DNA of 64,000 bases, taken from assembly GCA_965208105.1 (NCBI GenBank), contig OZ242318.1:2848001-2912000 (forward strand), in the 5' to 3' direction. The stretch comes from Candidatus Latescibacterota bacterium (GTDB taxonomy: Bacteria; Latescibacterota; UBA2968; UBA8231). A program made the position numbers and the translations under genes. Under the pieces are notes generated by a model, which ran no database searches, was not told the origin of the DNA, and was given only the letters and a program-made list of their open reading frames with translations. The first letter of the stretch is position 1. Every line of letters begins with the position of its first letter. Shown piece after piece: positions 2,132-21,221 of this stretch.

Positions 2132-2153
2132 TAATGATAATCTATTGTCATTA
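2132..2153. promoter_or_regulatory. Fur-family (Zur-like) operator A
   Basis: TAATGATAA-TCTA-TTGTCATTA, 9-4-9 palindrome with 1 mismatch, upstream of a zinc ABC operon. Confidence 0.7.
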
Positions 2154-2209
2154 AGCAGTCAACCTAACTCGGGCGGATAGGGTCCGGTCTCATGGGTTTG
2201 AACGCTGCC

Positions 2210-3286
2210 TCAATTGGAAAATGCCGCGTTCAGATTCTTCCGGTGCAGAATAAACCAAATCACAATGGGAGCGCCCAGAATCGAAGTCACGGCATTGAGC
2301 GGCAGCGCTATTTGACTGCCCGGCAAGCGGCCAATGAGGTCTGCAAACAAGGCCAGCGTTGCGCCCATGCACGTCACTGCAGGCATCAGCGCCCTGTGAT
2401 CAGAGGTGTGCAGCAGGCTCCGGCAAAGATGGGGAACAGCCAGGCCCAGAAAGGCGATGGGACCGCAGAACGCCGTTGTTGCCCCGGCCAACATCGAGGC
2501 GCTGATCAGGATATAGATGCGTACGCGTTTTACATTCAAGCCCATGCTTCGGGCGTAATCTTCGCCCAGCAACAGGGCATTGAGCGGCTTGATGCACAAA
2601 AAACCCACCAGAAGCCCCAGGGAGATCACAGACCCCAGAACGGGTATTTGTTTCCATGACACCCCTCCGAAACTGCCGAACGTCCATATGATGTAGGATT
2701 GAATCTGTTCGGGAATGCTGAAATAAATCAGAATGCTCACAAAAGCGCCCGTGGCATACCCGAACATCAGGCCCAGGATGAGCAGCGTCATGGCGCTTTG
2801 CACTTTTCGGGAAACCAGCAAAACGCAACCCAGCACCGTGCCCGCGCCCAGGCTGGCCGCTGCCGCAAGACTCAAATCGCCCAAAATTCCCAGCCCTACG
2901 ATGAGCGCGCCGCCCGCAGAACCCACCGCCAGCACCACGATGGCCACGCCCAGGCTCGCGCCTGCATTGATGCCCAGCACAAAGGGATCCGCCAGCGGGT
3001 TGCGAAACAGCGTCTGCATTTGCAACCCGCCGACGGAAAGCGCCGCACCCGCCAGTACCGCGGTGATGGTTCTTGGCAGGCGGATGGTGTGAACGATGGT
3101 GGGCCAGGCCGGGGTGGCGGTTTCTTTCCCCGTCAGGATCGCCAGGATATCCAGAAAGGGAATATGCACCGACCCCAGCGACAGGCTCAAAACAAAGGCT
3201 AAACACAGCAGTGGAAATAATCCCAGCATCATGATGGCCTGACGGGAGATTGCCGTTGGGGAGTTATGTGCTGTGATGACAGACAT
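2210..3286 (-). CDS. FecCD/BtuC-family ABC permease
   Basis: IRLPR, FRNPLADPFVLG, GPIAFLGLAVPH; start MSVITAH follows a GGAG RBS. Confidence 0.92.
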   Translation of the reverse strand: MSVITAHNSPTAISRQAIMMLGLFPLLCLAFVLSLSLGSVHIPFLDILAILTGKETATPAWPTIVHTIRLPRTITAVLAGAALSVGGLQMQTLFRNPLADPFVLGINAGASLGVAIVVLAVGSAGGALIVGLGILGDLSLAAAASLGAGTVLGCVLLVSRKVQSAMTLLILGLMFGYATGAFVSILIYFSIPEQIQSYIIWTFGSFGGVSWKQIPVLGSVISLGLLVGFLCIKPLNALLLGEDYARSMGLNVKRVRIYILISASMLAGATTAFCGPIAFLGLAVPHLCRSLLHTSDHRALMPAVTCMGATLALFADLIGRLPGSQIALPLNAVTSILGAPIVIWFILHRKNLNAAFSN

Positions 3287-3581
3287 CGGAATCCGTCTCC
3301 TGAAGAAAAGCACTATGTGCGCGATGCATGCCGCACATGCAATACTTTTCCAGATTGCCAGGCGCCTCTGCTCAATATCGAAAAAGCACAAATCCGGCGG
3401 CGAGAATGGCAAAACGAGACAAACCGGACAGGCAAAATTGCATGTTCCCCTCACATTGCCAGCACTTCCACCCTGCGGGTCTGGGGCATCTGCCATCCCA
3501 GGGCCAGCGCATCGCAAACCGCTTCCAGCGGATGTTCAGATCGCACCTCAATTTGCTGGTAGCACAAAACCAGGCATCGGA

Positions 3582-3700
3582 CCGTGCTGCTCGTATTGGC
3601 GCTTCCAGCAGTAGTACGCCTCACGGGAGATACCGAAATACCTACGGGTCTTGGAAACATTCCCAGTCTCCTTGGCGTGCTCCGGCACCCTAAGCTTTCG
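3582..3700 (-). pseudogene. Transposase N-terminal HTH remnant (IS481-like)
   Basis: RKLRVPEHAKETGNVSKTRRYFGISREAYYCWKRQYEQHG; no start codon or catalytic domain. Confidence 0.65.
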
Positions 3701-3708
3701 GCTAATGG

Positions 3709-4506
3709 TTACGCACTGCCCTGCGCCATCCATTCCTTGTTCCGGCGGATGCTCTCCTCTTGCGGAATAAGCGGGCAACTGGCACAATAATTCCCCTCCG
3801 GCATGAGATAGTACCGGCAGCAGGCGCTCCTGCGGTGGAAAACTTGCATACAGCCCTGATGCGATACGTCGTAAAACTGTGGACGCATCTGCTGGATCAC
3901 ATCATCGCCATCGAAAAAATGCTCTGCATCGGTCCATCCCGCATTTGGGGCATCCACATGTTGCATCACCTGTGCAAACTGGCTGCCCCAGGAAGACGTG
4001 ATCATGCCCCAGATTGCGCGAACGGAAAACCGCGACCATGCATGCAAAGCATCGACGACGGGCGTGGCCTGGTCCACCAGCGTTTGGCGCAAATACCGGC
4101 GAAGGTCATCCGTTTGGCGCTCGTTCGCACCGATTGCCCCTTCGGCCTGGTGCAGGGCCACGCGTTCGAACAGGCCGTTTTCGCCGAATTTGAGACTGAT
4201 ATTATCAAGCGACATATTGGGCACAGCCCGGCAGAGCAAAAAAGGCGCGATGGCCACCCCGGCAGACGAACCAAAACGCAACGCAAAAGAAGCAGCCAAT
4301 GACCGGCGGTCTTCGGCTTCTCGCCTCGCACCTAGTGCCTGAAGTAGGCTCCTGAAAGGAACGGCATCGGGAAAGAATAAATCCGATCCACGCAGCCACC
4401 CTCTTCCATTGGGCACCCCCAGAGCCACATCCCATTTAGGATGAAGGGTCTTGAGGTATGCATAGGCATTGGGAATAGATGAAACGGGTTGTATGGGAGC
4501 GTTCAA
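3709..4506 (-). CDS. FhuF-like ferric-siderophore reductase (2Fe-2S)
   Basis: C-terminal RRSACC-x10-CASCP motif. Confidence 0.85.
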   Translation of the reverse strand: MNAPIQPVSSIPNAYAYLKTLHPKWDVALGVPNGRGWLRGSDLFFPDAVPFRSLLQALGARREAEDRRSLAASFALRFGSSAGVAIAPFLLCRAVPNMSLDNISLKFGENGLFERVALHQAEGAIGANERQTDDLRRYLRQTLVDQATPVVDALHAWSRFSVRAIWGMITSSWGSQFAQVMQHVDAPNAGWTDAEHFFDGDDVIQQMRPQFYDVSHQGCMQVFHRRSACCRYYLMPEGNYCASCPLIPQEESIRRNKEWMAQGSA

Positions 4507-4537
4507 TGTAATCTCCTGATTGAGCAGAAAACGGGTA

Positions 4538-7500
4538 TTACCATGTTTTTCTGCGCTGTCTTAACCAGCCGAAAGCCACCAGGAGCGCACTGATGATGCC
4601 TATTGCGAAATATGTGGTTTTGTGCGTTGACAGATGATCGGCGACCGTGCGTACAACATCCGCCATTTCGTATCCCGTCATCGGCTCTGCAGGTGCAGGC
4701 GGCAGATCATAACGTGCCTGGCGTGCAATGTTGATCGCATCCTGATAGGGCTGCGCCAGTGCCTGAACACCTGGTGTTTTGTTGAGCAATTCGGTTACAA
4801 ACGTTTCAAGGGATGGGCTGTTGCAGATACCCGAATTACAAGCCGGGCCGTGATCAGAAACGGACTGCGCTAACTGCTGGGCAACATCCTGTAAAACCTC
4901 ATCGGTTGCCTGCCAGTAGCCTTTGTGCGCCGCTTCCAAAAGCGTGGCCATCATCGTCTGTTCGGCATAGGGGTTGTTCTCGGAAAAATAATCCTCTAAC
5001 CCCAGATCGTATTCGTCTTTCATGTAAACTTGATGAATGCGTTTCCAATCCTCGTCGGAAACCAGATCGGGTGACGTGACTTCCCACACCCACATGGTTT
5101 CTGTGAACTCGGTCATATACCGCGCGCCATCATAACCGTGATCCATCATGCCTCGAATCCATTTGGGATTGAAATAGCGAGATCGCAATTCGCGCGAATA
5201 AAAACGCTCCAACGTTTCGACGCGCTCCGATTGGGGATTGCGCAAATTGTGGATGTAAAGATCGATTTTGCGGTCCGTGGTGTTGCGCACGGCCATGTTC
5301 ATGCCGCCAAGATAGGCGGCGACCATGGGATGGTCGAGCACGCCATACACGTTTGATGTGCGTCCGAATGAAGCAATTTCAACGGTTTCAATGTTCTGGC
5401 GAAACAAATCCTGAACGTATTCTCCCACGGTATTTTCGCCATAAGCATGGCTCATGCGCGTCATATAGAGATCGGATATTTTGCCGTCGTCCTCCCAGGT
5501 ACCGCCTGCGTGTATGGCAAACTGAATGGAGGGGGAGTATGCGCCCACGTTTTCGGAAAACACGCGGATACTTGCAAGAGATTGGGCCGACTCGGGGGAT
5601 GGCCCAGCAGAGGCCAGTTTTTGATAGGCTGCTTCGGTGTGTATGCGTACGATGTTATCGGGTTCATCTAATTCCGAGACCAATTTGACGGCTTTGTGAA
5701 TCAGACGGATTTTGTCCATGAAATGGTCGCGGTACGTGCCGGACGTGGTGACGAAAACATCCACGCGGGGCCGCTTGAGTTCGTGCGGGGGAATCACTTC
5801 AATGTCCGCAACCCAGCCACGCTTATTCCACACCGGGCGCACGCCGAGCAAGTAAAAAACCTGCGCTTCCAGAATGCCTTTGTTCTTTGTGATTTCAGAG
5901 GACCAGAGCACATAACCCACCCGCCGTGGATACGCTCCGTGCTTTTCCACGTGCTGGTTGAGCATGTCATCGGCCAGGCGTCGGCCCACTTCCCAGGCTT
6001 CGCGGGTGGGCATGGATCGGTGGTCGAAGTGATAGGGATTTCGTCCCGAGGGCAGGGCGTCGGGGTTGCGAATGGCATCATCCATTTCCCCGGGTTCGAT
6101 GAACCGGCCTTCAAGAGCGGATAAAATGCGGGGCACTTCTTCCCGCGCCGCCTCAATGCGCGCTTTGTAATCCAGTGCGCGCTGCAAATAGATTTCGATA
6201 TCTTCCGATGCGGCTTTGAGCTGCGTGCGCTGAATATCCTGCGTGGTTTCACCGCTAAGCAGAAGATCTGTGAGAATGATTTTGGCCAGCGTATCGGGAG
6301 AAACGTCGGCCCTGTGTGCAACAAGCGCTTCGCGGAATTCACGTCCCAGCATTGAGCGCACCATGTCAACGAGAGGCCGTCCCTCTGGAGGCACGCCGAG
6401 GGTATGCGGTCCATAGGGGATATGCTCGCGGTTGATTTCTTCAAGGTAAGTGCGGGTGGCTGTGGCAAGCTGATCAAACGGCGCCCCTTGAATATCCAGT
6501 CCCAGGTCGCGTGCCAGATGGAGGCGTTCGCACTCCTGGCGAATGCCTGTTTCCAGTTCGGCGCGCACCGCCGGCGGCAGATTTTCCCCCAAGCGGGCGG
6601 TCTTGTTGCGCAACTCGTGCAGGTTTTCATACAGTTCGGATGCGACAATTGTGGGCATGAATCCAATGGTTAAGGCGCTGGCCCGGCGCTTGCTCCCAAT
6701 GCCCGCATTGCCCTGGAGGGGTGTGGGATAAATGTGGGGCATATTGCCGATGAGCCTGCCCACCCAGTCGGTTCTGGCCGGCCCTTCCATTTTGCCCGGC
6801 ATGAGTGAAAGCTGGGTGAACATGGTGAGCATGGCATGGGGATTGTACACCTGCTGGAGCCACTCGAAAAAGGCGAAATACTGGTGGTGCGGCGGCAACT
6901 GGTCTTTGGAATACAAAACGTCCTCATCCTGTTTATAACCCCAGTCGGGGTGCGGCACCAGCAGCACGTTTCCAAACTGAATTTTGGGAATTGAGATCAT
7001 GCGCTGGCCGTCGCGCGCCGTATGCACCATGATACTGCCCGGCGGCGCCCCCCAGTTGTCGATCATTTCTCTTTGCTTTTTCTCAGGAAGTTCTCCAAAC
7101 CAGTTCAGATAGGTGTTTTCGGGAATGGTGATGGCATGTCCCTGCCCCACGCGCTTGCCCATTTCACCGGGCGCCCAGTTGCCCACGTTGGAACCCTGTT
7201 CGGCCATCATCCGGCTCAGTGTTTCCACGTCGGGCAGCGGCTTTTCTCCCACGTTATATCCCGCTTCTTTCAGGGCCTTCAGAATGTTCACCAGGCTGGC
7301 CTGGACATTTAAATAGAAATCGGGATCGCTGCCGATATTCGCCTTGCCTGCACCCTCGCTGTAATAGGGAATGACGAGCCGCTTCTCGCGATTGGACATG
7401 CGCCGCAGTTGCGCCCAGGCCAGCGCGCGTTCCACACGCCAGTCGAGCTGGTCTGGCATAATTTGATTTTTCGGCTGGCCGGTTTCATCCGCAACGCGCC

Positions 7501-8524
7501 CGGATATGACGATGGGTTCAATGATACCGTCGGTTTCGCTGTAAACGGCCTGAGGGGTCATATCGGGCGATAGCCCGCCGATGTTGTCGCGCCACTGATC
7601 CGGCGTGCCGGGATAGAAATTGATACCCGATAAAATGGGCACATTGAGCGCATGGGCATGCTGTTGCCCTTTTCCGTAGTCGAACCAGTTGATTTTCGTG
7701 CCGCAAAAAATCAGCGCATCCACCAGGCTTTTCCCATCCTCGATGAGATACGGATCAAACAGAAAACCGCCTTTCCCCATCAAAGGAAAAACTCGGTGGC
7801 CCCGGAGCTCAACATTGCGAACCAGGGAATCGACATATGCGGTATTGCCTTTGATATAGTTATCCTGGTAGAAGACGATGCCGATGTTCAAAGGATTTTT
7901 AGAGGGGCGATGCCGCTTTTGTCTGGCCTGCTCGCGCCAGTCGCGATAGGCGCGATGGCTAACGAACAATTCCGGGGCATCAGGATGGTAAAAGGCATGT
8001 TCCGGATATGCGATGGGCGGCTGCGTCTCGATGGGCAGAGCCAGAAGGTTTGCTCCGAGGTAATGCATCAGCCGCCGCACGTTTTCCCGGCTGCTGTTGG
8101 TCCAGTACTGTTCCAGCCAAGGATGGTGGTCCAGAGATACATTTCCCTGTATGTACCGGGGCTTGACAACCACCACCTTTGTCGCTGTTTTGGCCGCGTC
8201 GAACTGGTCGATGTGAAACCCGAGTTTCGCACCAATGCCCTCGGCGAAAATCAGGTCATATCTCGTCAAGTCGATGCCTTCAAATGAGGGAAACGGCGGT
8301 TTCCCATGGCTGTAAATATCCACATCCATATAGGATTCGAGTTCCCTGGCCGCCTGTTCAAGCTCCCAGAAAGCATGCAGGCTGATGACGGCAACCGCTG
8401 ACTTTTTCCTTTTTTGCGCCACGTCTTCCGTAGCGGTTTGACAGGCGCTCAAAACCGCCAGGATCAGCAAAAGCAAAACACATCCGATCCTTTTTTTCAC
8501 GTCCTCATTCCTTTCACTGCACAT
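4538..8524 (-). CDS. CobN/Mg-chelatase H-like (HmuS/BtuS-type) protein, predicted lipoprotein with C-terminal TM anchor
   Basis: PPHHQY, PYGPHTLG, LPSGRN, RPRVDV, SGTYRD, RYFNPKWIRGMMDHGYDGA; lipobox LSAC; hydrophobic C-terminus. True start may be GTG near 8500. Confidence 0.9.
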   Translation of the reverse strand: MCSERNEDVKKRIGCVLLLLILAVLSACQTATEDVAQKRKKSAVAVISLHAFWELEQAARELESYMDVDIYSHGKPPFPSFEGIDLTRYDLIFAEGIGAKLGFHIDQFDAAKTATKVVVVKPRYIQGNVSLDHHPWLEQYWTNSSRENVRRLMHYLGANLLALPIETQPPIAYPEHAFYHPDAPELFVSHRAYRDWREQARQKRHRPSKNPLNIGIVFYQDNYIKGNTAYVDSLVRNVELRGHRVFPLMGKGGFLFDPYLIEDGKSLVDALIFCGTKINWFDYGKGQQHAHALNVPILSGINFYPGTPDQWRDNIGGLSPDMTPQAVYSETDGIIEPIVISGRVADETGQPKNQIMPDQLDWRVERALAWAQLRRMSNREKRLVIPYYSEGAGKANIGSDPDFYLNVQASLVNILKALKEAGYNVGEKPLPDVETLSRMMAEQGSNVGNWAPGEMGKRVGQGHAITIPENTYLNWFGELPEKKQREMIDNWGAPPGSIMVHTARDGQRMISIPKIQFGNVLLVPHPDWGYKQDEDVLYSKDQLPPHHQYFAFFEWLQQVYNPHAMLTMFTQLSLMPGKMEGPARTDWVGRLIGNMPHIYPTPLQGNAGIGSKRRASALTIGFMPTIVASELYENLHELRNKTARLGENLPPAVRAELETGIRQECERLHLARDLGLDIQGAPFDQLATATRTYLEEINREHIPYGPHTLGVPPEGRPLVDMVRSMLGREFREALVAHRADVSPDTLAKIILTDLLLSGETTQDIQRTQLKAASEDIEIYLQRALDYKARIEAAREEVPRILSALEGRFIEPGEMDDAIRNPDALPSGRNPYHFDHRSMPTREAWEVGRRLADDMLNQHVEKHGAYPRRVGYVLWSSEITKNKGILEAQVFYLLGVRPVWNKRGWVADIEVIPPHELKRPRVDVFVTTSGTYRDHFMDKIRLIHKAVKLVSELDEPDNIVRIHTEAAYQKLASAGPSPESAQSLASIRVFSENVGAYSPSIQFAIHAGGTWEDDGKISDLYMTRMSHAYGENTVGEYVQDLFRQNIETVEIASFGRTSNVYGVLDHPMVAAYLGGMNMAVRNTTDRKIDLYIHNLRNPQSERVETLERFYSRELRSRYFNPKWIRGMMDHGYDGARYMTEFTETMWVWEVTSPDLVSDEDWKRIHQVYMKDEYDLGLEDYFSENNPYAEQTMMATLLEAAHKGYWQATDEVLQDVAQQLAQSVSDHGPACNSGICNSPSLETFVTELLNKTPGVQALAQPYQDAINIARQARYDLPPAPAEPMTGYEMADVVRTVADHLSTHKTTYFAIGIISALLVAFGWLRQRRKTW

Positions 8525-8530
8525 GGAGAG

Positions 8531-8875
8531 CTACTCTTTTTCGGGCACGTAAATCACACGTCCATCTTCGAGTTGATAGGCAATGCCCAGCCGGGTGCCG
8601 TTCCCGGACAGGGAATTCCCCGTTACCTTCCGGACTTTGATTTCGCGGTCTTTGCGCGGAATGACCTCGGTTTCACCCTGTGGCGTGGTTCGCACCAGGG
8701 TCCATTCCGCATCTGGGCGCAACAGCTCGTGCATGGGCAACAGCGCAAAAAGCGCCATGATGACGGCGACCACGAAGGCCATGCTGACATCGAATAAATT
8801 GGTTACGCCGGCCATCGGATCATGGCTGTTCTGACGCAACGCCTCCGAATGGTTGATTTTGTTCACAAAACGCAT
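8531..8875 (-). CDS. DUF2149 family protein (HmuV-like)
   Basis: DPMAGVTNLFDVSMAF...GTRLGIAYQLEDGRVIYVPE signature; between ExbB-like and CobN-like genes. Confidence 0.9.
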   Translation of the reverse strand: MRFVNKINHSEALRQNSHDPMAGVTNLFDVSMAFVVAVIMALFALLPMHELLRPDAEWTLVRTTPQGETEVIPRKDREIKVRKVTGNSLSGNGTRLGIAYQLEDGRVIYVPEKE

Positions 8876-8887
8876 GATGCCTCCCTC

Positions 8888-9451
8888 TCAAAAGACCTGT
8901 TCCGGGATAGATCTCACCTGGTCATTCCGCCTTTCAACGTGAAAGGCAAGGGCCTGAATATCTTCCCGAACCCACTTTTCCTTGACCAGCGCCAGCACAT
9001 AGGCCACCGTGCCGACCGCCAAACCGAGTACTGTCGTGGAAAAGGCGGTGACCATATTTCCAGACAGCGCGGGCAGATCGCCCTGCGACAATCCCTGAAG
9101 CGCGCCCGCCATGGGAATCAGGGTGCCGATCAGTCCGAGGGAAGGCCCCACGCGAATGGCGAACCGGACGCTATCCAGGGCGCGTGTGCTTTGCTGGTCA
9201 GCATCGTGAATTACTTCCTCCAGGTCGATTTCCAGGTGTGCGCCTGATTGGGCTTCGATCAGGGCATCGCATTGGGCCGTATATTTGGCACGCACATGAA
9301 ATCGCTTCTTGCGGCGTTGCAGACTTTCGCGAGCAAATTCACCCAGGCAGACCAACATCCAGCACGCGAGAAGCAACAGGGCGATTATGACCGGATAAAA
9401 CAGCAGGGAAGAGAGCATGTAAATAACCTGGGTGATTTGCAGGATTTCCAT
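8888..9451 (-). CDS. MotA/TolQ/ExbB proton channel family protein (HmuU-like)
   Basis: GPSLGLIGTLIPM...AFSTTVLGL. Confidence 0.9.
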   Translation of the reverse strand: MEILQITQVIYMLSSLLFYPVIIALLLLACWMLVCLGEFARESLQRRKKRFHVRAKYTAQCDALIEAQSGAHLEIDLEEVIHDADQQSTRALDSVRFAIRVGPSLGLIGTLIPMAGALQGLSQGDLPALSGNMVTAFSTTVLGLAVGTVAYVLALVKEKWVREDIQALAFHVERRNDQVRSIPEQVF

Positions 9452-9474
9452 GAACGCCTCGGTCCTTATGGGAA

Positions 9475-10635
9475 TCAGGGAGCGATCTTGCGATAGTATT
9501 TCAACGTGTGGTTCGGCAGGATATGCGGATGAAAAATGTGGATCAGATCGGCCAGAATGAGATGCGGCTCCACAACGCCGGATTCCCAGTAATCATTGGC
9601 TCCCGAAGCGTTGACCCTGGCATTGAAATTGTATATTTGACCGTTTTGGAACGCTTTGAAGGCGCTGTAGCGCGCATCTTCCAGCAGCATATCGGATCGG
9701 GCATGCCATTTGTTGCGCCCGGTGATCCAGAAGTCCGCGGTGGCCGCCTTTTCATAAACCGCCTCAAAATCCAGGGGCAAACTGCCCTGAGTTTCATCTT
9801 GTGCCCACACATATCTTGCGCCTGCAGTTTTGAGCAACTGCGCGACATAGCTTTTCCCTCCGGCGACATACCACGTGCCGCGAACCAGCGCCCCGCCAAA
9901 AACCAGGGGTTTTGCCGTCTCCGCCAACCCGTTCATCAAATCGGCATAACGCGCATACTGCGCGGCAATATCATCGAACATCTGTTCGGCCAGCGCCTCC
10001 TGACTGAAAAACGCCGCCGTGAATTTCAGCCATTCGGTTCTGCCCAGAAGGGTGGGTTCGACATATTCGGCATTGATCATCACGGGCACGCCGGCCTCTT
10101 GCAGGGCCGGATGGGAAATGTACCGACCATTGGCAGGGGCCACGGCCATTACCAGATCCGGGTTGAGTTGCAGCACCCTTTCCAGATCGATCTGACTGCC
10201 TCTGCCAATGCCGGGCAAATGGCCGGCCTCCACTTTCCGGCGCAGGTCGGAATCGTAAATGCCGTCTGGATTGCCGACCGCAACAAGAGACTCGTATTGA
10301 CCGAGCAATTTAAGATGCGGCAAATGCGTGGTTGACAGCACGGCGATCGTCTGGATAGGCACGCGAATGATGCGTTCTTTTTTATACGCCTTTGGGACCG
10401 GCGTGCCTTTGGGTATCAGCACATAGCGAAAGGATTCGGAAGCGTCCGGCCAGGGTTGGGTCACATCGACAATCTTGACATCCCCCTCATAGGTGATCGC
10501 AAAGCATTGGGCATAGCGCACGTGCGCTTTGTCCTGAACGGGATTGGGCCGCGTGGTTGAAAATTCATCGGCCTTGAGGTCCGCCCCCCAAAAGCCCATC
10601 GCACAAAACCAAACTGAAAGCATGCGCAGGTTCAT
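9475..10635 (-). CDS. Class III periplasmic binding protein (BtuF/FepB-like)
   Basis: Signal peptide, DLERVLQLNPDL, LGRTEWLKF, NDYWESG...ILADL. Confidence 0.88.
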   Translation of the reverse strand: MNLRMLSVWFCAMGFWGADLKADEFSTTRPNPVQDKAHVRYAQCFAITYEGDVKIVDVTQPWPDASESFRYVLIPKGTPVPKAYKKERIIRVPIQTIAVLSTTHLPHLKLLGQYESLVAVGNPDGIYDSDLRRKVEAGHLPGIGRGSQIDLERVLQLNPDLVMAVAPANGRYISHPALQEAGVPVMINAEYVEPTLLGRTEWLKFTAAFFSQEALAEQMFDDIAAQYARYADLMNGLAETAKPLVFGGALVRGTWYVAGGKSYVAQLLKTAGARYVWAQDETQGSLPLDFEAVYEKAATADFWITGRNKWHARSDMLLEDARYSAFKAFQNGQIYNFNARVNASGANDYWESGVVEPHLILADLIHIFHPHILPNHTLKYYRKIAP

Positions 10636-10663
10636 CGTTTTCTCTTTCAATGGCAAAACGGGA

Positions 10664-11479
10664 TCACAACGGAATTTGTTGATAGGTTGGAGAAACAGGA
10701 CGCTGGGCGATGAGGTCCCAATCGAAAATCAGAACAGTTGACCGGGGCGATGTAAATGAGAGCAGGCGCTCGCTTTTTTTGATGACGGCGCTTTCGGCAT
10801 CGGTGAAATCGAGATGGACATCTTTGCCGGTTCGGTTGCACACCACAAGCGGCAGTCCCGTATCGCACGCACGCTGCTCCCATTCGCCGTTCGGGCCATA
10901 CAAACCCGGCGCCCACGCAGCCGGGGAAACGAGCAGTTGCGCACCCTGCGTTTTGAGCCTGTTTGCCCAGGTATCCGGATAGGCATCAGCGCAGATCAGC
11001 ACACCGGCTTTCAAAGGTGCAGTGGGAATGGGCACCGCGTTCACTCCTGGTGTCGCCCATGATTCGGAACCGGGGATCACGCTGATTTTTCGGTGTTTTC
11101 CAATACAGATGCCGCGATGGTCGAACACAGAAACCGCATTGTAACACCGCCCGTCCTGTGGATCGCGTTCGGGATGTGACAAAAAGACGACCAGATCGAA
11201 TTGGGCGCTGATGCGTTGAATTTTTTGCATCCAGGCATCCGGTTGCGGCGCAATCCAGTCCGTTCCAATGCGTTCCGCAAAGGCATAACCACAGGTGCAA
11301 AGCTCCGGTGTGAGCACCCAGTTGGCCTTGAAATGCGCCGCAACGGCCAGCCCCGTTTCCACCAGGCGTTGATTGTGCGCCAGATCACCGGGAATGGGTG
11401 CCACATGCAAACAGGCTATGCGCAATATTTCGGGCGGTCCTTTAATCAGCGCGCCAGGATTCTTTCTGCATTGCGGCAA
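10664..11479 (-). CDS. Carbon-nitrogen hydrolase (nitrilase superfamily)
   Basis: Intact E-K-C triad: TPEL, HRK, LICAD; overlaps the ATPase end. Confidence 0.88.
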   Translation of the reverse strand: MPQCRKNPGALIKGPPEILRIACLHVAPIPGDLAHNQRLVETGLAVAAHFKANWVLTPELCTCGYAFAERIGTDWIAPQPDAWMQKIQRISAQFDLVVFLSHPERDPQDGRCYNAVSVFDHRGICIGKHRKISVIPGSESWATPGVNAVPIPTAPLKAGVLICADAYPDTWANRLKTQGAQLLVSPAAWAPGLYGPNGEWEQRACDTGLPLVVCNRTGKDVHLDFTDAESAVIKKSERLLSFTSPRSTVLIFDWDLIAQRPVSPTYQQIPL

Positions 11480-12464
11480 TCAGATCATAAACGGAATGGT
11501 GCTCCCGAACGGAACCGTTGCGCCTGGTACACCAGGTTATGCGCTGGTCCTGGGAAAAAATCTCGATATGCAAATCCGCATGCGCACTGTTCACCTGAAA
11601 ACCAGCCCGTTCCAGTGCGCGCGCCGTCCAGAAAGCCGGTCGTCCATGCCCTGAAAGCCCAACCGCTTGGCCGATATGGGCATGGTTTTTAAATGCGCCG
11701 GTATCGGCGTCAAAACGCACGCCATCGCTGTCGAAAGCCGCTTCAAAAGCGCCATTCAGAATCAAATCTTCCGGCGCCCCAACATGGATCGGGCCACCCG
11801 CAGGCATGAGCCAGATGCAGTCGGCGCATCGCAGGGCGAGGTCGAGATCGTGGGTTGACAACAGGATGGCTTTCTGCGTGGTGTGCGCCAGATTTTTGAG
11901 CAAAGCCATGATTTCGACGCGGCGGGGCAGATCCAGAAAGGCCGTAGGCTCATCCAGCACCATCAATTCGGGTTCCTGGGCCAGCGCCCGCGCGATCATG
12001 GCTTTCTGGCGCTCGCCATCGCTGAGCTCGGCCACATTGCGGTGCGACAGGTGCTGTGCCCGTGCAGCCTGGATTGCCCAGGAAACCGCCTGCTCGTCCG
12101 GTTTGGAAAGCCGGCCTGTCCAATCCGTATGGGGATACCTCCCCAGCGCCACCAGGTCTCGCACCGCCAAAATGCCCACGCTGACGCGGTCTGTGAGCAC
12201 CACGCTGAGTTTGCGGGACAGGTCTCTGGCCGGCAAACGGGCCACATCCTGGCCGGACAGATAAACACATCCCTTTAATGGAGGCTGCATGCCGACCAAC
12301 GTGCGCATCAGCGTGGATTTGCCCGCGCCGTTGGGGCCGAGCAAACAGACGAATTCGCCGCGATGGAGTGAGACGGATACTGTGCCGGCCACAATGTGCG
12401 GAGCCTGCCGGGCTGGCGCGTAACCGATGGTGAGGTTTTCTGCTGTCAAGACGGGTTCCGTCAC
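11442..12464 (-). CDS. Iron-chelate/corrinoid ABC ATPase (FepC/BtuD-like) with C-terminal extension
   Basis: GPNGAGKST, LSDGERQK, LDEPT, STHD; likely GTG start. Confidence 0.92.
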   Translation of the reverse strand: MTEPVLTAENLTIGYAPARQAPHIVAGTVSVSLHRGEFVCLLGPNGAGKSTLMRTLVGMQPPLKGCVYLSGQDVARLPARDLSRKLSVVLTDRVSVGILAVRDLVALGRYPHTDWTGRLSKPDEQAVSWAIQAARAQHLSHRNVAELSDGERQKAMIARALAQEPELMVLDEPTAFLDLPRRVEIMALLKNLAHTTQKAILLSTHDLDLALRCADCIWLMPAGGPIHVGAPEDLILNGAFEAAFDSDGVRFDADTGAFKNHAHIGQAVGLSGHGRPAFWTARALERAGFQVNSAHADLHIEIFSQDQRITWCTRRNGSVREHHSVYDLIAAMQKESWRAD

Positions 12465-12589
12465 AAGAGTTCCAGTCTCTTTAGAGACGCTGCACAAACA
12501 GACAGGAGTGCTGCAGGAGGCAGGAGAGCAAAGGAGCGAGGCTTTCTCCCTTGCCTCTTTCTCGGTATTTCCTGCGCTCCTGCAGCAGT

Positions 12590-13159
12590 TTATCCGTGGT
12601 GGAATTTCCGGGCCTGCTGATCGAACGGATCGGGAGCAAGCCCCAGGTGCGTTTTGCGAAGCGCGTTCCACATCCCCAGGCGCGGCCAGTCCGGCGGATC
12701 GAGCTTTTTGAATTCCGGCACGCTCACAAAAAACGGACTGGGGAAAAACACTGTCATTTGCTGTTCGCCTTTGCCGTTGAACATGTGGAAACCCCAGCTC
12801 GAGGGGTGGCCATCGGGATTGAGGAGGCGGTAAAACTCCGCGCGCGATGTCCTACGCCGCCGAGCCAGTTCGGGCGATGCGCCCTTAAATTCGCCGATGC
12901 ACAGGTGAAAATGCCAGGGGCCAAAATCCACGGTAAGGTAGCCGTTGTTCAACGTGATGCGTTTGGGCGCATTGGGGGCGCCCACTTCCCAGGCCGCGCC
13001 CTGAATGAGCGGGCCAAAGTGAATGTCCTGCCAGTAATTTTGAAAAACATCCTCCAGAATGGTTTTGAGATTGTCTGCGGACAGATCGACCGGAAACACC
13101 TCCATCTTACCCCCGCCTTCGGCTTCTATGATTTTCCCTCTTGGAGTTGTAAGGTCCAT
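12590..13159 (-). CDS. Conserved hypothetical protein, possible HutX/ChuX/HemS-like fold
   Basis: RBS and operon position; WHFHLCIG and SWGFHMFNGKGEQQMTVFF resemble the HutX C-terminal strand pattern (fold is inference). Confidence 0.6.
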   Translation of the reverse strand: MDLTTPRGKIIEAEGGGKMEVFPVDLSADNLKTILEDVFQNYWQDIHFGPLIQGAAWEVGAPNAPKRITLNNGYLTVDFGPWHFHLCIGEFKGASPELARRRRTSRAEFYRLLNPDGHPSSWGFHMFNGKGEQQMTVFFPSPFFVSVPEFKKLDPPDWPRLGMWNALRKTHLGLAPDPFDQQARKFHHG

Positions 13160-13180
13160 GACAGCCTCCTTTATAGTGGA

Positions 13181-15559
13181 TTAGAAACGCACCGCATATT
13201 GCATGCGCGCGGAGCGGCCCGGCAGGTTATAGCCGCGCTTTTCGTAATAGTTTTCGTCGGTTAGATTGTTCAAATAAAGCGACACGGTATAGCGTTCGCC
13301 GATTTTGAAAGACGATACCAGATCTGCGACCATAAATGCCGGATATTGTACCTCCGGACGTTTGGCGTCGGTCCAATCCGTATCTTTGCGGTTGCCCACA
13401 TAGCGTCCGGTCAGGCGCGTGTTGAAAAAATGTCCGTCGTCATATTCCGCGCCCCAGGACAGGCTGGTATTTGCCACATTGTGAATGTCCCGGCGCGTTT
13501 CGGCACCCGTGGCCGGGGTTACCGTCACATCTTCGGCATTGAGCGTGTGGGTGGCATTGGCGAAAAAGCGAAAGGTATACGCATAATTGCGACGGGCGCC
13601 CAGGTCATAAGAGGCTTTCCACTCGATGCCATGCATGTTGGATCGGTTGGCATTGACAAAGGTCGTGCGGGAGGCAATCGTGTCGCCGGATGCCGTAACC
13701 TGTCCAACCGGGTTGGTGGTTTGTCGCGTGATGCGGTCGTTGACGCGGGTGCGGAAAAACGTGATGTCGATATCCAATCCCATATCCGGCCTCGTAAGTC
13801 CTGCACCCAGATCAAACGTGATGCTGTTTTCAGGATCTAGATCGGCATTGCCTTCAGTAATGGCCACGTCCCCGGTGCCGGTGCCGGTTTCGGAAAAACC
13901 GGCCACATTGAAGGCATCAGGGGTAACAAAAGCTCGGCCTATAGTGCTATGCACATGCAAGCCCGATGATTCTGTGCGATATTTGAAACCCGCGCTTGGA
14001 TTGAATGTGGTAAAGGTTTCTTCGCCCGGATTAAAGGATGTGAGCAGGGGCGTTTGCTTGCCGTCGAAGGTAATGCGATCTAGCCGTCCTCCGGCCGTGG
14101 TCGTGAGGTGCTCATTCAGGAAATTGAAACTTCCTTCGATGAAAAGCGCTTGCGTATAGATGCCGTAATTGGGACTAAATGGGGCACGAGGCGTCTCGGC
14201 TGCGCTCCAGCTTTTCCCCTCGGTATTGGACGAGTTCCAATCTGCGCCAAGCGTGAGTAAGTGCGGCCCCAAAGCGAAGGCGTCCTGTATTTGAGCGCCA
14301 AACCAGGTGTTGCGCCGGGTAAAGGATATGAATGGTATGCCGCTTAGATTGTAGGACTCGGAGACTTCTTCTGACCCATATGTCTTGAACTGGAGGGCGT
14401 GGTTGCCCACCAGCCCCGAAAACTGGACGTCGCCTGATATATTCTCGGCATTTTTCCGGCCGGCTCGTTCGGTGCCGTAAAAAATATCTCCGGGGGTTTC
14501 TACATTGCGCGCGATAAAGCGGCTGACCGAACTGTCCAGCCGCCAGATCTCTTCTATCTGATAACCCAGCCGGAGACGACCCTGGTTTTTGCTGAATTTG
14601 GTGTTGGGGCGCACCTCGCCGTCTCCCAGTTCGGTTTTGGTGTCTGTGGTGCCATCGGCATAGGTGACATCGGCCTCGTCGCTGCCGACCATGCCCTGGA
14701 ACACATTGCCTTTTCCAATGCGATAGTCCTTGTTCTGGTCGGAAACGTTGATGCCCAGATCAAAATCGAACCCGTTGCTGATGCGTCCGCCAGCAGACAG
14801 GGATGCGCCGAATGTCTCAAAAGATCCGTACGATGCAGAGAGGTCAATGCGCGGCAAATAAGTGGATTTCCGGCTGATGATATTGACCACGCCTCCCATG
14901 GCCTGAGTGCCGTACAGCGCCGATCCCGGCCCTTTCATCACTTCGATTCGTTCGATATTGTTGAGATCGATGGTCGCTAGATTCGAGGCCCCGGCATGCC
15001 GCCCGTCGATCAATAGCAGGCTGCGCTGATTCAGGCCGGAAAACTGCGGGCGAAACCCGCGAATGCCCACGCCGGACAGTAGGCCGGGATATTGAATAAT
15101 ATCAATGGCCGTTTGTTTTTTGAGCGCATCGGTCAGATCATCGGCCACGGTGCGATCCAGATCCGTTCTCGATATGACATCTATTTTTTGAGGCACCTTT
15201 TCAAGATGCTGCGCACTGCGCCTGGCCGTAACCACCACATCCTCCAGTTGCACTGCAATGGGCGTCATGGCGATAACTCTTTCTTTTTGTAGAAATTCTC
15301 TGGAAACAATGCGCGTGAGATAGCCCGTGTGGGAAATTGCAATGCGTTGATTTGTCTCAACAGCCAAAGAGAAAGCACCCTTAGCATCGGTTGTGGTCCC
15401 CGTGCTGGTCCCCTCAATTCTGACATTGGCTCCCACCAGGATTTGGCGGGTCTGGGAATCGATTACTGTGCCTTGACGCTGGGCAAATGCATTGCCGTGA
15501 ACAAGGCAGAACAAAAGCCCCAAAATTAAAGGGAATGAAAACGGCCTGATGTCTTTCAT
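13181..15559 (-). CDS. TonB-dependent receptor with N-terminal carboxypeptidase-regulatory-like domain
   Basis: GANVRIEGT..GTTTD..G.F, LEDVVVTA, IERIEVMKGPGSALYG..AMGGVVNII, NNLTD.NY, terminal F. Confidence 0.95.
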   Translation of the reverse strand: MKDIRPFSFPLILGLLFCLVHGNAFAQRQGTVIDSQTRQILVGANVRIEGTSTGTTTDAKGAFSLAVETNQRIAISHTGYLTRIVSREFLQKERVIAMTPIAVQLEDVVVTARRSAQHLEKVPQKIDVISRTDLDRTVADDLTDALKKQTAIDIIQYPGLLSGVGIRGFRPQFSGLNQRSLLLIDGRHAGASNLATIDLNNIERIEVMKGPGSALYGTQAMGGVVNIISRKSTYLPRIDLSASYGSFETFGASLSAGGRISNGFDFDLGINVSDQNKDYRIGKGNVFQGMVGSDEADVTYADGTTDTKTELGDGEVRPNTKFSKNQGRLRLGYQIEEIWRLDSSVSRFIARNVETPGDIFYGTERAGRKNAENISGDVQFSGLVGNHALQFKTYGSEEVSESYNLSGIPFISFTRRNTWFGAQIQDAFALGPHLLTLGADWNSSNTEGKSWSAAETPRAPFSPNYGIYTQALFIEGSFNFLNEHLTTTAGGRLDRITFDGKQTPLLTSFNPGEETFTTFNPSAGFKYRTESSGLHVHSTIGRAFVTPDAFNVAGFSETGTGTGDVAITEGNADLDPENSITFDLGAGLTRPDMGLDIDITFFRTRVNDRITRQTTNPVGQVTASGDTIASRTTFVNANRSNMHGIEWKASYDLGARRNYAYTFRFFANATHTLNAEDVTVTPATGAETRRDIHNVANTSLSWGAEYDDGHFFNTRLTGRYVGNRKDTDWTDAKRPEVQYPAFMVADLVSSFKIGERYTVSLYLNNLTDENYYEKRGYNLPGRSARMQYAVRF

Positions 15560-15794
15560 AATGATTCCTCCTGAAATCAATGGGATGACGTGAACGGTAT
15601 GGCCTTGATCGGGCCTGCGGTCACCACTACCTGTCGTTGCCTTCTCTTCCTTCCTTTTTGAACCCAGGATCAGGTTTGCCTGTCATCTGCCGCCATGTTG
15701 CACTCCTTCTTTTTTCTCTTGATTTGCTGTAAGCAAGTGGCAACCCATAGCTGATGTTCATTTCCAGTCCGGCCTGCCGCTCGATCTCGGTTGG

Positions 15795-16265
15795 TCAGAG
15801 CTGGGTGAGACCGGGGGCGTCACCATAGACCTTCCGGGGATCAAATACCTTCTGCGTCTCCGTGAATCCCAGTGGCTGGCCGGCCTGGTCGCCGAAGGGC
15901 ACGGCGCGGTAGAAACAGGAGCGATACCCTACATGGCAACTGGCCCCGCCCTGGACGTCCACGCGCAGCCAGATACAATCCTGGTCGTCATCGATCCGGA
16001 TTTTGCGGACTCGCTGCACCAGGCCGCTCGTTGCGCCCTTGTGCCAGAGGCATTTTCGGCTCCGGCTCCAATAGACGGCCTCGCCCAGAGTGATCGTTTG
16101 AGTGAGCGCCTCGGCGTTCATGTAGGCATGCATGAGCACTTCGCCGGATGTGAAGTCCGTGGTAACTACGGGGATCAGCCCGTGCTCATCGAACTTGGGG
16201 GCCAGATCGACTCTTTCCTCGACCTGCTCGACGCTCTGTCTATCCGAGAAGGGCGAAATGCTCAT
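15795..16265 (-). CDS. hisI: Phosphoribosyl-AMP cyclohydrolase paralog
   Basis: [24 protein letters not shown]; DDDQD in place of DCDxD. Confidence 0.9.
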
Positions 16266-16291: not shown

Positions 16292-16669
16292 CTAAAGGGT
16301 GATAACCTGATCAGGCAGGTTGCCACTCAAGGCGCCATAGAGCTGAGGGAAGCAGCCTGCGGACACCCCCTCAACGGTTCCCTTCGCCGTGACTTCACCC
16401 TTGCCACACTGTTCAAGCGTGCCTTCGGCCAAGTTGCGGCGCACGGCGCACTGGTCACACATCATCAACAGGATGCCGCGTTTTCGTGCGACCTTCGACA
16501 AACGCTCTCCTACCGGGTCACCCGAGCGCAGGACGAAGGTGTTGTCATCGAAGAAAAACATCCCGACGACCTCGGCGCCGTGATAGCCGCCTTCGAGTTG
16601 GGGCAGGATCATTGTTGCCAGCTGAAAGGTTGAAGCCATGTTGGAGCGGAAGATGTAGGCGACCTTCAT
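16292..16669 (-). CDS. DsrE-related protein (SaoD-like)
   Basis: [42 protein letters not shown]. Confidence 0.75.
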
Positions 16670-16786
16670 GTTCTGTTCTCCTGTTGGTTGTGCGTCTCAG
16701 CATTGCATAGGTGAAAGCTCAGGTTTGTTTGGCAGCGAGACACCACCGCAAATTGACCGTGGATCAAGCGAGGGCAGCAATTCGTG

Positions 16787-16814
16787 AAATGATAATAATA
16801 ACTCATTATCATTT
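16787..16814. promoter_or_regulatory. Fur-family (Zur-like) operator B, double site
   Basis: AAATGATAAT-N8-ATTATCATTT perfect inverted repeat containing TAATAATAA-CTCA-TTATCATTT. Confidence 0.72.
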
Positions 16815-18299: not shown

Positions 18300-18398
18300 C
18301 GGGGTTTCGTCCAGATTTGCAGCAGAAAGCTCCGGTTTGCTTGGCCGCGAGACATCGCCGCGGATTGGCGGTGAATCAAGGGAGGGTAGCAATTCTTG

Positions 18399-18426
18399 AT
18401 TTGATAAAGATATTTCATTATCATTA
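18399..18426. promoter_or_regulatory. Fur-family (Zur-like) operator C, double site
   Basis: ATTTGATAAAGATATTTCATTATCATTA; same architecture as site B; upstream of the COG0523 remnant. Confidence 0.68.
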
Positions 18427-19506: not shown

Positions 19507-20604
19507 CTATTTCTCTGTAAGCTGCCGAAACAATTCAAAAGCCGCATCCGACGCGCTATCCTGATGAGTGTCATTTTCCGTTTGGCACGCATCAAAGCGC
19601 GATTGCAACTCGCAGTCGTCTATTCCACCTTCCTCACCGATAAAAACCAACTGTGTCCCCGGTTTCTCGTCGCCCCACGGCTCACCAGTGATCAGACGCG
19701 CCCGTTGGCCGGCAACATGGACGATTCCCTTCTGACCGGGAATGTCGGAAAGGTAAACAAACCCTTTGGCGCGGTAGATAGTCGCAGGTAGAGTTTTCAC
19801 CGCATCAAGCACGGCCCCACGTGACAGAGGTTTGTCCGTCGTATAGCACCACGTGTTGAAAACAAGCGTATGGTCGGTATGGGGTCCGTGATGATTCTCG
19901 TGAGGGTGGTCGTGTTCATGCGCCTCGCCCTCCGCATGAACGTGAACGTCCAGGCCTGACTTCCCCGAAAAGCGGTGGAGGTCGTATGCCCCGACACCGA
20001 GTACCAGATCGAGCGGAACCTTGCCATATGCAGCTTCGAGGATACGCGCTCTCGGAACGAGATCTGTGACAAAGTCCGCCAATTCCTCCCGCTTTTCATC
20101 ATTGACCAGGTCAAGCTTGTTCAACACCACAATGTCTGCCATGGCGATTTGGTCTACCGCGAGTCTACGATGCTTCTCGTTCACCTTGTAAATCTGCTCC
20201 GCGTCAACCACGGTCAGCACACTGTCCACTCGCGTCCTAGACTGCAATTCGACAGCCATGAAGGTCAATGAAACCGCCGTCGGGTCAGATACGCCGCTCG
20301 TTTCAACGACGATATACTCCGGCGGGTTCGGGTCCTGAATCAACTGAACCGTTGCTTCGAGCAGGTCATCGCGGATCGAGCAACAGATACACCCGTTGGA
20401 AAGGTTGATGGTGGACTCCCCGGAGACCCCGGAGACCAACTCGGCGTCAATGTTGATCTCTCCAAAGTCGTTGACCAGCACTGCCACCCGCAATCCGTGG
20501 TCGGCGTTGAGAATGTGGTTGAGCAGGGAGGTTTTGCCCGCGCCTAAAAAGCCGCTGATAATTGTTACTGGAACAGGTTCTTTCAAGTTTTGATCTTCAG
20601 CCAT
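19507..20604 (-). CDS. COG0523/CobW-family G3E zinc metallochaperone GTPase
   Basis: GFLGAGKT, GCICC, ETSG, NKLD, His-rich linker, RAKG. Confidence 0.95.
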   Translation of the reverse strand: MAEDQNLKEPVPVTIISGFLGAGKTSLLNHILNADHGLRVAVLVNDFGEINIDAELVSGVSGESTINLSNGCICCSIRDDLLEATVQLIQDPNPPEYIVVETSGVSDPTAVSLTFMAVELQSRTRVDSVLTVVDAEQIYKVNEKHRRLAVDQIAMADIVVLNKLDLVNDEKREELADFVTDLVPRARILEAAYGKVPLDLVLGVGAYDLHRFSGKSGLDVHVHAEGEAHEHDHPHENHHGPHTDHTLVFNTWCYTTDKPLSRGAVLDAVKTLPATIYRAKGFVYLSDIPGQKGIVHVAGQRARLITGEPWGDEKPGTQLVFIGEEGGIDDCELQSRFDACQTENDTHQDSASDAAFELFRQLTEK

Positions 20605-20634
20605 TGATTCGCTCCCAGGGTACCGCTCACCGAG

Positions 20635-21186: not shown

Positions 21187-21221
21187 GGTCCTCCTGATCT
21201 TCGACTGAGAGTCTCTCGCGC

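Follow-up and report, generated by a model that had tools for sequence, protein, structure and literature searches.

The window analyzed here comprises 64,000 nucleotides of a Candidatus Latescibacterota bacterium genome (GenBank assembly GCA_965208105.1, contig OZ242318.1, positions 2,848,001 to 2,912,000 of the forward strand), and its positions 2210-15559 hold a block of ten genes that may serve the uptake and processing of a metal-tetrapyrrole. Open reading frame (ORF) listing and Pfam assignments placed all ten genes on the minus strand with intact reading frames, and the block extends from the ATG of a TonB-dependent receptor (TBDR) gene at 15559 to the stop codon of a FecCD-family permease gene at 2210. 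The only receptor of the block (13181-15559; Pfam CarbopepD_reg, Plug and barrel domains) is followed by a cytoplasmic DUF7676 protein with a ChuX/HutX fold (12590-13159) and by the ATPase of an ATP-binding cassette (ABC) transporter (ABC_tran; ORF 11442-12671, the real start probably lying near 12470), which carries a C-terminal extension of about 90 amino acids. Next come a cytoplasmic, amidase-like CN hydrolase of the nitrilase superfamily (10664-11479; CN_hydrolase) and a periplasmic binding protein with a signal peptide (9475-10635; Peripla_BP_2). A MotA/ExbB-like proton-channel subunit (8888-9451), its single-pass membrane partner DUF2149 (8531-8875) and a CobN-like protein of 1328 amino acids with predicted export (4538-8524; CobN-Mg_chel, E 4.6e-292) form a triad of Pfam-assigned genes. 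The block closes with a FhuF-like protein (3709-4506; FhuF_C above and the FhuF domain below cut-off) and the BtuC-like FecCD permease (2210-3286).

Intergenic gaps are mostly 6-31 bp. Exceptions are the uncertain junction between the DUF7676 and ATPase genes and 422 bp before the permease gene, where translation revealed a transposase helix-turn-helix (HTH) remnant (3551-3718, minus strand; HTH_28, E 5.7e-6). This remnant region might decouple expression of the permease or supply a promoter of its own. The triad is inserted between the binding-protein and permease genes, leaving importer genes on both flanks. Among the block genes Pfam identified no AAA+ or VWA chelatase partner of the ChlI/ChlD/CobST type, and in window positions 1-22000 no Rfam family matched at E<=1; hence no riboswitch was found there. 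These results agree with a first-pass annotation made from the sequence, which had described ten co-oriented, mostly tightly spaced genes at the same coordinates and had noted that both an AAA+ partner and a riboswitch were missing. The gene content given in that annotation also stands, although the order in its title is not the genomic one, and several of its labels can be made more precise. Its "amidohydrolase" is really the CN hydrolase, with Glu, Lys and Cys aligned to a solved amidase; its "HutX-like" protein deserves the name at the level of the fold, the sequence family in Pfam being DUF7676; and its "ABC" entry stands for three separate genes lying on both sides of the CobN-like module.

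The importer half has the composition of a Btu system, with Pfam-assigned TonB receptor, Peripla_BP_2, FecCD and ABC ATPase components. In a B12 biosynthesis cluster of a genome of the same class (L010 in G026), the receptor, binding protein, permease and ATPase are 56, 55, 66 and 62% identical to those of the block. The genome under study (G000) also possesses a riboswitch-headed B12 salvage operon encoding a receptor, binding protein, permease, ATPase, CbiZ and CobD, to which the binding protein, permease and ATPase of the block are 52, 62 and 51% identical. In the native riboswitch-controlled B12 operon (L146, G000:C1:15443-16852, minus strand), a 469-residue FlgD_ig protein is encoded between the receptor and binding-protein genes and might bind corrinoids at the cell surface or in the periplasm. 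The block's receptor is 45% identical to the L020 receptor directly behind a B12 riboswitch and only 31-35% (in one case 43%) identical to receptors of CobN-like triads, which makes it by identity a receptor of the Btu-importer type and not of the triad type. Its ATPase shares 45-62% identity with ATPases of DUF7676/B12 loci, and its permease 62-66% with permeases of B12 operons. Riboswitch operons of the arrangement TBDR-DUF7676-BtuFCD, in part extended by CbiZ, CobD or adenosyltransferase (L017, L020, L041), have like parts that are 45-63% identical, including the C-terminal extension of the ATPase. They differ from the block in having a riboswitch and lacking both the triad and the CN hydrolase, whereas the block is riboswitch-less and lies under a Fur-family operator. 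The best NCBIfam matches, both below threshold, were a corrinoid ABC transporter ATPase for the ATPase (186 vs 537) and BtuC for the permease (200 vs 334). A sequence search of solved structures gave one match for the binding protein (E 0.0028), while the receptor matched BtuB and Cir in the plug domain alone.

The neighbourhoods of DUF7676 genes point in the same direction. When the window proteins were compared by tblastn with 80 DUF7676 loci, many of which end early at contig ends, the ATPase was found in 56, FecCD in 52, the binding protein in 39, the FhuF-like protein in 4 and CobN in 2, while a receptor at a coverage of at least 40% was present in 5 of the 80. Pfam analysis of nine such neighbourhoods identified CobD and adenosyltransferase in L014 and L050 (plus CbiX in L050), BtuFCD-TonB-CbiZ in L017, and in L020 a full aerobic-type set with true CobN, ChlI/VWA, BluB, CobB and CobW. 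Rfam detected a cobalamin riboswitch upstream on the same strand in five of seven DUF7676 loci; the remaining two adjoin CobD, adenosyltransferase and, in one locus, CbiX. An nhmmer profile built from the Rfam-found sites, used together with Rfam spot checks in place of a covariance model, matched at least once in 48 of the 80 loci and nowhere in the window or in the contig of a second genome that carries the block (G039, described below). Because the closest relatives of the importer are B12-riboswitch or B12-cluster systems, a corrinoid-type ligand appears more likely than haem or a siderophore. A metal-tetrapyrrole had already been proposed as a possible substrate, and that idea holds; the importer half is not a generic one.

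At E<=1e-3, DUF7676 has 525 relatives spread over many phyla, with identities of 50-60%. Their alignment contains an invariant W-H-F-H-x-C stretch and C-terminal His/Cys residues. The predicted structure (pLDDT 90, pTM 0.87) matched HutX, ChuX and the half-domains of HemS/ChuS/PhuS with a Foldseek probability of 1.00 and TM values of 0.40-0.48. VIA comparison gave Z scores of 9.5-10.7 with root-mean-square deviations of 3.1-3.5 Å over 119-131 residues, the next unrelated fold reaching Z 3.4. On the basis of this model, DUF7676 is a candidate tetrapyrrole (corrinoid) chaperone. A literature search on "DUF7676" returned no paper mentioning it. The family is widespread in cobalamin-riboswitch operons of Chloroflexota, Actinomycetota, Pseudomonadota and Bacteroidota (loci L011-L090).

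The FhuF-like protein scored 26.5 against FhuF_C (cut-off 20.5), 18.4 against the FhuF domain (25.2) and 45.7 in NCBIfam (63.85), and its comparison with FhuF in the PDB gave E 0.13. Its C-terminus, read by eye, shows the C-C-x10-C-x2-C pattern of E. coli FhuF, a [2Fe-2S]-type motif. Homologs with 32-33% identity (E ~1e-37) are encoded between CobD and adenosyltransferase genes beside DUF7676 in four loci. The relatives thus sit in B12 clusters and not in siderophore loci, which speaks against the ferric-siderophore role that had been read into the FhuF name. The nearest solved relatives of the CN hydrolase are amidases, with which its Glu, Lys and Cys positions align.

The triad belongs to another group of systems. 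Hydrophobic segments were found in DUF2149 (one), in the ExbB-like protein (two or three) and in the CobN-like protein, whose N-terminal segment at 13-31 ends in a lipobox-like L-S-A-C and whose C-terminal segment spans 1303-1321; the CobN-like protein is accordingly predicted to be exported and anchored by both a lipid and a helix. Its best solved relative is HmuS (PDB 9d26, E 1e-136). An exported CobN-Mg_chel protein with adjacent ExbB-like and DUF2149 genes, a receptor in the operon and no AAA+ gene in the locus are the features of a BtuS/Hmu module, and the kinship of this core with hmu-type loci, which had been proposed earlier, is borne out. Features of a class I chelatase (CobNST/ChlHID) are missing, as the block has no AAA+/VWA partners, export signals are present and the His motif of the family is absent. 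The CobN-like gene is the only CobN-family gene of its genome. No close relative was found in 24 genomes of the same family, and a CobN-family match at E<=1e-20 occurred in 8 of 168 genomes of the phylum, the own genome included. The only close relative among them, with 94% amino acid identity, is in G039 from another family; the next best relatives in a large protein collection are at most 48% identical.

Among 72 metagenome loci with CobN-like relatives, 43 contain an ExbB-like gene, 42 DUF2149, 15 a receptor and one a CN hydrolase. Of 301 Pseudomonadales genomes sampled, 18 had a CobN-like match at E<=1e-100, and the triad was present in 13 of 14 fetched genome regions, the exception being a 5.5-kb contig. 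Rfam confirmed cobalamin riboswitches upstream of triads in all six loci examined, which had been preselected as flagged by nhmmer. Among metagenomic relatives, the one nearest to the CobN-like protein (L147, 44% identical) is encoded in an operon of two riboswitches, receptor, DUF2162, ExbB-like, DUF2149, CobN-like, CbiK, CobB, CbiC, methylase and CbiD. Other triads lie near zinc-type genes, namely L141 (ZIP, two COG0523 genes, Fur family), L157 and L163 (COG0523), L158 (ZnuA, DUF1007, NicO) and L162 (Fur family). In L157 (3966-11726), two tandem CobN-like genes that lack the His motif follow one receptor/ExbB-like/DUF2149 set beside COG0523 genes. A literature search on "DUF2149" gave, among the matches listed, only Bacteroidota, Pseudomonas or general surveys.

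The block is embedded in a zinc island of about 36 kb with znuABC, Fur-family genes, four COG0523 genes or remnants, a hisI paralog, a ZnuD-like receptor and a ZrgA system. Operators in the island take the form of a 7-2-7 palindrome with the core TGATAAT-nn-ATTATCA plus flanks. Operator A (2133-2152, minus strand; palindrome 17/18) overlaps the -10 region of the promoter-like site that a promoter scan gave for znuC (TTGACT-17-TATCAT). Operator B (16794-16813, minus strand; 16/18) lies between -35-like and -10-like hexamers before a DsrE-like gene and hisI, 1.2 kb upstream of the receptor gene, and agrees with the znuC box at 15 of 20 positions in both orientations. Operator C (18406-18425, minus strand; 16/18) precedes a COG0523 remnant, and operator D, between the second Fur-family gene and the ZnuD-like receptor, agrees with the znuC box at 14 of 20 positions. 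Scored with the palindrome consensus, which was derived from the same sites, only four sites of the genome reach at least 15/18, all of them in the island before zinc-type operons. When the znuC box alone was used as a probe on the 4.85 Mb, seven other sites reached at least 15/20, and two of these seven are operators B and C (in both orientations). The only two Fur-family genes of the genome are both in the island, one of them behind znuCBA, and the iron-regulator role could fall to three DtxR-family genes located elsewhere. Transcription most likely starts, judging from the sequence, at the operator-bearing promoter before the DsrE-like gene and hisI; no minus-strand terminator-like site was found between hisI and the receptor gene, and read-through from operator B into the latter is plausible. 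The link to zinc that had been suspected from operator B is thus supported, this operator being of the same type as that of the znuC promoter and the block lying inside a zinc island.

Within the collections searched, the exact ten-gene combination was found again in one other genome only. In G039, a 15-kb contig is collinear with window positions 2199-15581 at 91-96% nucleotide identity, and the block is a recent horizontal acquisition. There it is preceded by DsrE-like and full COG0523 genes (here DsrE-like and hisI) and has Fur-family genes at both ends; because of these COG0523 and Fur-family flanks, the zinc context is common to both copies. The best operator candidate in G039 reaches 14/18 only. 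Nine of the reading frames are intact in G039, and the ratios of nonsynonymous to synonymous substitution (dN/dS; small counts) demonstrate purifying selection on most block genes, with values of 0.09 for DUF2149 (the lowest), 0.16 for the amidase, 0.18 for the FhuF-like protein, 0.20 each for the CobN-like protein and the permease, 0.27 for the ExbB-like protein and 0.31 for the receptor.

These data favour, at somewhat less than an even chance, the reading that the block is a hybrid operon under Zur-type control for the uptake and processing of a corrinoid-type metal-tetrapyrrole. It would have arisen when a BtuS/Hmu-type periplasmic module (ExbB-like, DUF2149, CobN-like) was inserted into a Btu-type importer operon. 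The single receptor, whose kinship is with BtuB-like proteins, would bring the chelate into the periplasm, where the anchored CobN-like protein and its private proton-channel pair may bind the chelate and, by analogy with HmuS, handle its metal at the expense of the proton-motive force. Since the triad splits the importer genes and the single receptor is of the importer type, the arrangement is an argument for the CobN-like protein acting on the molecule that this receptor brings in, and it suggests a single imported metal-tetrapyrrole as the substrate of both halves. If a divalent ion (Zn or Co) is freed, it could enter through ZnuABC encoded just downstream, in analogy with HmuS and FeoB. 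The ABC importer would carry the macrocycle to the cytoplasm, where DUF7676 might hold it and the FhuF-like reductase and the amidase might modify it, as their folds, families and B12-cluster neighbours would allow. A more specific version is rather doubtful: zinc-starved cells would import a corrinoid-like metal-macrocycle by way of a BtuB-type receptor, the CobN-like protein would use the proton-motive force to strip or swap its metal, the ion would pass to ZnuABC and the ring would be recycled. Here, the CobN-like clade would have replaced the "universal" His/Glu by another solution, Co would be a possible stand-in for Zn, and the emptied ring would be recycled via the ChuX-fold carrier, the [2Fe-2S] reductase and the amidase.

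Several observations weigh against the hybrid operon reading, and a number of them concern the active site of the CobN-like protein. At the place of the Glu of the L-E-F-M-P-G-K stretch of ChlH, which is catalytic, the protein has a Ser. The H-F-G-(T/A)-H-G motif that contains His-538 of HmuS is absent, and alignments to HmuS, ChlH and CobN show T-M-F-T-Q, two residues shorter, at its position. This His was reported to be invariant throughout the superfamily and indispensable in HmuS, where H538A abolishes haem turnover (PMC12583661). Of the motif around His-1209 of HmuS (L-S-L-D-H-x-x-E-F-M-G-G) the L-D-H is kept, while the remainder differs (V-L-D-H-P-M-V-A-A-Y-L-G-G). Met-79 and His-254(-Gly-Arg) of the HmuS haem site correspond to Ile and Thr in a stretch that aligns with low confidence. 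The HmuS-like metal removal that the first-pass annotation had suggested is therefore not simply transferable to a protein without the His/Glu motif of HmuS, ChlH and CobN; a dechelatase or chelatase activity may need a different mechanism or different residues, or the protein may only bind its ligand. The CobN-like protein also contains a P-H-P-x-W-G stretch, the His of which is specific to its clade.

The motif loss is shared with relatives. An anchored pattern applied to 85 CobN-family segments from 84 loci, a set that left out the 80 DUF7676 loci, the G039 contig (L009) and the G026 locus (L010), classified 31 as lacking the motif and 51 as having it; three were unassigned, among them L162, in which the motif is absent by eye. 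Within the 31, an ExbB-like gene and DUF2149 accompany 27 and a receptor 16, with zinc-gene neighbours in three loci (four with L162) and a riboswitch in one. The 51 canonical segments have ExbB-like genes in 25, DUF2149 in 23, zinc-gene neighbours in one and riboswitches in six. The protein of L147 shows the same loss as that of the block. Because these 31 segments without the motif mostly have the partners alongside, the loss is a trait of a clade of at least 31 proteins that have retained their ExbB/DUF2149 partners, and not local decay.

Other points against the hybrid operon concern its control, its parts and its integrity. The palindrome score is circular, the non-circular test with the znuC box is modest, and operator D reaches only 14/20 in it. 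The gap of 214 bp between hisI and the receptor gene contains neither an operator nor a promoter-like site. NCBIfam gave only sub-threshold PerR/Fur matches for both Fur-family paralogs, and the regulator is named Zur from its genomic context. No block protein exceeded the NCBIfam cut-off for any Btu component, and the best sub-threshold match of the receptor is a haem receptor family (227 vs 317). The exact combination was found in G000 and G039 only: DUF7676, the FhuF-like protein and the binding protein were found in none of the 72 CobN-like metagenome loci, and the CN hydrolase, ExbB-like protein and DUF2149 were found by tblastn in none of the 80 DUF7676 loci. In G039 the ATPase gene is largely deleted (539 + 252 bp; L009, G039:C63, 9500-9900 vs window 11583-12494), with loss of the start, Walker A and signature regions, and about 390 bp with the transposase HTH remnant before the permease gene here have no counterpart there. 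The highest dN/dS values, again from small counts, are those of the binding protein (0.45) and DUF7676 (0.49). A zinc-sparing switch from MetE to MetH, considered as a reason for zinc-controlled B12 uptake, was not supported. No MetH activation domain was found in the genome, and at least nine short Meth_synt_2 (MetE-core-like) paralogs of 340-400 amino acids are encoded at several places on G000:C1.

Much of the same evidence can be arranged around cobalt. The block would then be a second B12 uptake or salvage system under zinc control, in which the triad supplies or exchanges cobalt and no zinc is drawn from the ligand. We consider this unlikely, even though the B12 lineage of the importer half suits it, the tandem riboswitches and the CbiK, CobB, CbiC and CbiD genes of L147 belong to the closest metagenomic relative, and triad relatives in B12 biosynthesis operons probably do supply or exchange cobalt. 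It is also in line with the elevated cellular cobalt of a P. aeruginosa znuA mutant, a rise that the authors tie to PA1922-25 (PMC4542158). The block has no riboswitch, however, the genome already contains a riboswitch-controlled salvage operon, the block lies between znuCBA and hisI/COG0523-type genes with a common operator, and the account gives no reason why zinc status should govern the supply of B12. If the zinc setting is instead taken at face value and the tetrapyrrole given up, the ligand could be a zincophore-type chelate that is imported by the receptor and the FecCD system and relieved of its metal in the cytoplasm by the FhuF-like protein and the amidase, as in siderophore pathways. 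FecCD/Peripla_BP_2 systems transport many chelates, the Zur-regulated PA2911-14 is of the same transporter type (PMC4542158), and the FhuF_C motif and an amidase with an intact catalytic triad would be at hand. This is nevertheless improbable in view of the tetrapyrrole-carrier fold of DUF7676 and its association with B12 riboswitches, the B12-cluster location of the FhuF-like relatives, the B12 operons around the closest transporter relatives and the CobN-family domain, which is a tetrapyrrole-handling scaffold.

A haem/iron locus of the hmu type, combining HmuR/HmuS/HmuTUV-like proteins with a ChuX/HutX-like haem carrier and a FhuF reductase, is highly improbable. HmuS is indeed the best solved relative of the CobN-like protein, and the sub-threshold match of the receptor, the fold of DUF7676 and the FhuF_C motif would all fit. 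The His-538 motif is missing, however, Met-79 and His-254 are not conserved (in the low-confidence alignment), Pfam found no HmuY-type gene in the block, the operator is shared with znuC and not with iron genes, and the importer and DUF7676 are of B12 lineage. Scars at the locus invite yet another account, in which the two modules came together accidentally on a mobile island and are now decaying, unexpressed or separate in function. The transposase remnant, the deleted ATPase gene of G039, the lost catalytic motif, the occurrence in only two genomes and the duplicated promoter cassette with a nearby COG0523 remnant would be expected of such a mosaic. With ten frames intact here and nine in G039, dN/dS values of 0.09-0.31 for seven of nine genes and a motif loss shared by a clade that retains its ExbB/DUF2149 partners, we regard an accreted mosaic as very unlikely. 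The operon itself is nevertheless rare and scarred, found in two genomes, and its modules are known.

Each module has counterparts in print. In the available text on P. aeruginosa, PA1922-25 (TonB receptor, CobN-like, "ExbD" and hypothetical proteins) is Zur-regulated with an unknown role (PMC4542158, PMC8531726); it was induced 44- to 147-fold in a znuA mutant, compared with 8- to 9-fold for PA2911-14, both with Zur sites (PMC4542158), and Zur shifts both promoters (PMC8531726). PA1922-PA1925 resembles the block in its receptor, exported CobN-like protein, small proton-channel-type pair, lack of AAA+ genes and control by zinc starvation. The module of the block, by contrast, lacks a dedicated receptor and is nested in a Btu-type importer operon. 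In Pseudomonadales, loci arranged as receptor-CobN-ExbB-DUF2149 (L132-L141), among which PA1923 is placed by gene order only, keep the canonical His motif that the protein of the block lacks. PA2911-PA2914, likened here by its description, shares the TonB receptor and the FecCD/Peripla_BP_2/ATPase importer under Zur (PMC4542158); it is a separate Pseudomonas operon, with which the available description reports no DUF7676, FhuF-like protein or amidase. HmuS, the haem dechelatase of the Bacteroidota hmuYRSTUV system (PDB 9d26), is likewise a CobN-family protein anchored in the periplasm and accompanied by a TonB receptor and by partners of the ExbB-like and DUF2149 types; metal release takes place outside the cytoplasm, and uptake of the metal is left to another transporter (PMC12583661). 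The block differs in lacking the His-538 motif and HmuY and in not being in an iron context. The BtuS family, linked to btuB and named by Rodionov et al. 2003 as cited in PMC6460266, is a third CobN type, predicted to be periplasmic and proposed from comparative genomics for metalloporphyrin salvage (PMC6460266). It likewise ties a CobN relative to TonB receptors and sometimes to B12 elements, whereas the fusion with an ABC importer, DUF7676, FhuF-like protein and amidase and the clade with the lost motif are not mentioned in the available text of PMC6460266.

The earlier statement that the combination had not been described thus applies to the exact ten-gene fusion and not to its two modules, both of which are in print (PMC6460266, PMC4542158). 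The Zur regulons reported for several bacteria include both a CobN-like operon and a B12-type importer, and neither has had a ligand or a role assigned since those first reports (PMC4542158, PMC8531726). A natural fusion with one receptor and, probably, one transcript argues that both Zur-regulated module types have the same imported molecule as their substrate. With their B12 lineage, the importer, DUF7676 and the FhuF-like protein narrow this molecule to a corrinoid-type tetrapyrrole and turn the question into one for a binding assay. If the strip-or-swap pathway were true, PA1922-25 and PA2911-14 of Pseudomonas would each make up one half of a pathway of this kind. Since the His described as invariant and essential is missing from an entire clade of CobN-like proteins of the periplasm, the dechelatase mechanism of HmuS cannot be generalized to all such modules.

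The remaining genes of the island complete the zinc context. Downstream of the block, Pfam identified znuC (1095-1856) and znuB (224-1102) on the minus strand, followed on the same strand to the left of the window by znuA, a gene without an assigned family, a Fur-family (Zur-type) regulator and a flavin mononucleotide (FMN) dehydrogenase. Further left, the island contains the second Fur-family gene, the ZnuD-like receptor, two COG0523 genes and a WD40 gene. Upstream of the block, the hisI paralog (phosphoribosyl-AMP cyclohydrolase; 15795-16265, minus strand) was identified by Pfam PRA-CH and by NCBIfam NF000768 above cut-off, and it is 35% identical to a second, housekeeping hisI elsewhere in the genome. 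The DsrE-like gene, the first after operator B (16292-16669, minus strand), encodes a SaoD/DsrE-family protein (NCBIfam NF040913, 205 bits, cut-off 152) with a weak Pfam DsrE match and a 71% identical homolog at the equivalent position in G039. To its right lies a flavin adenine dinucleotide (FAD) oxidoreductase gene headed by a 35-residue N-terminal remnant of COG0523. Operators B and C are part of a promoter/operator/leader cassette of 101 nucleotides that is duplicated at 16713-16813 and 18325-18425 (minus strand, 81% identical) and occurs at only these two places in the genome. The second cassette heads the COG0523 remnant that runs into the FAD-oxidoreductase gene, an arrangement that suggests a past rearrangement. 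The right part of the island (19507-24230, minus strand) encodes a full third COG0523 protein, DUF3299, an FtsX-type permease, an ABC ATPase and a ZrgA-family protein. Upstream of this ZrgA set are a small Cys-rich membrane ORF and a half-operator-like site near 24378 (13/18).

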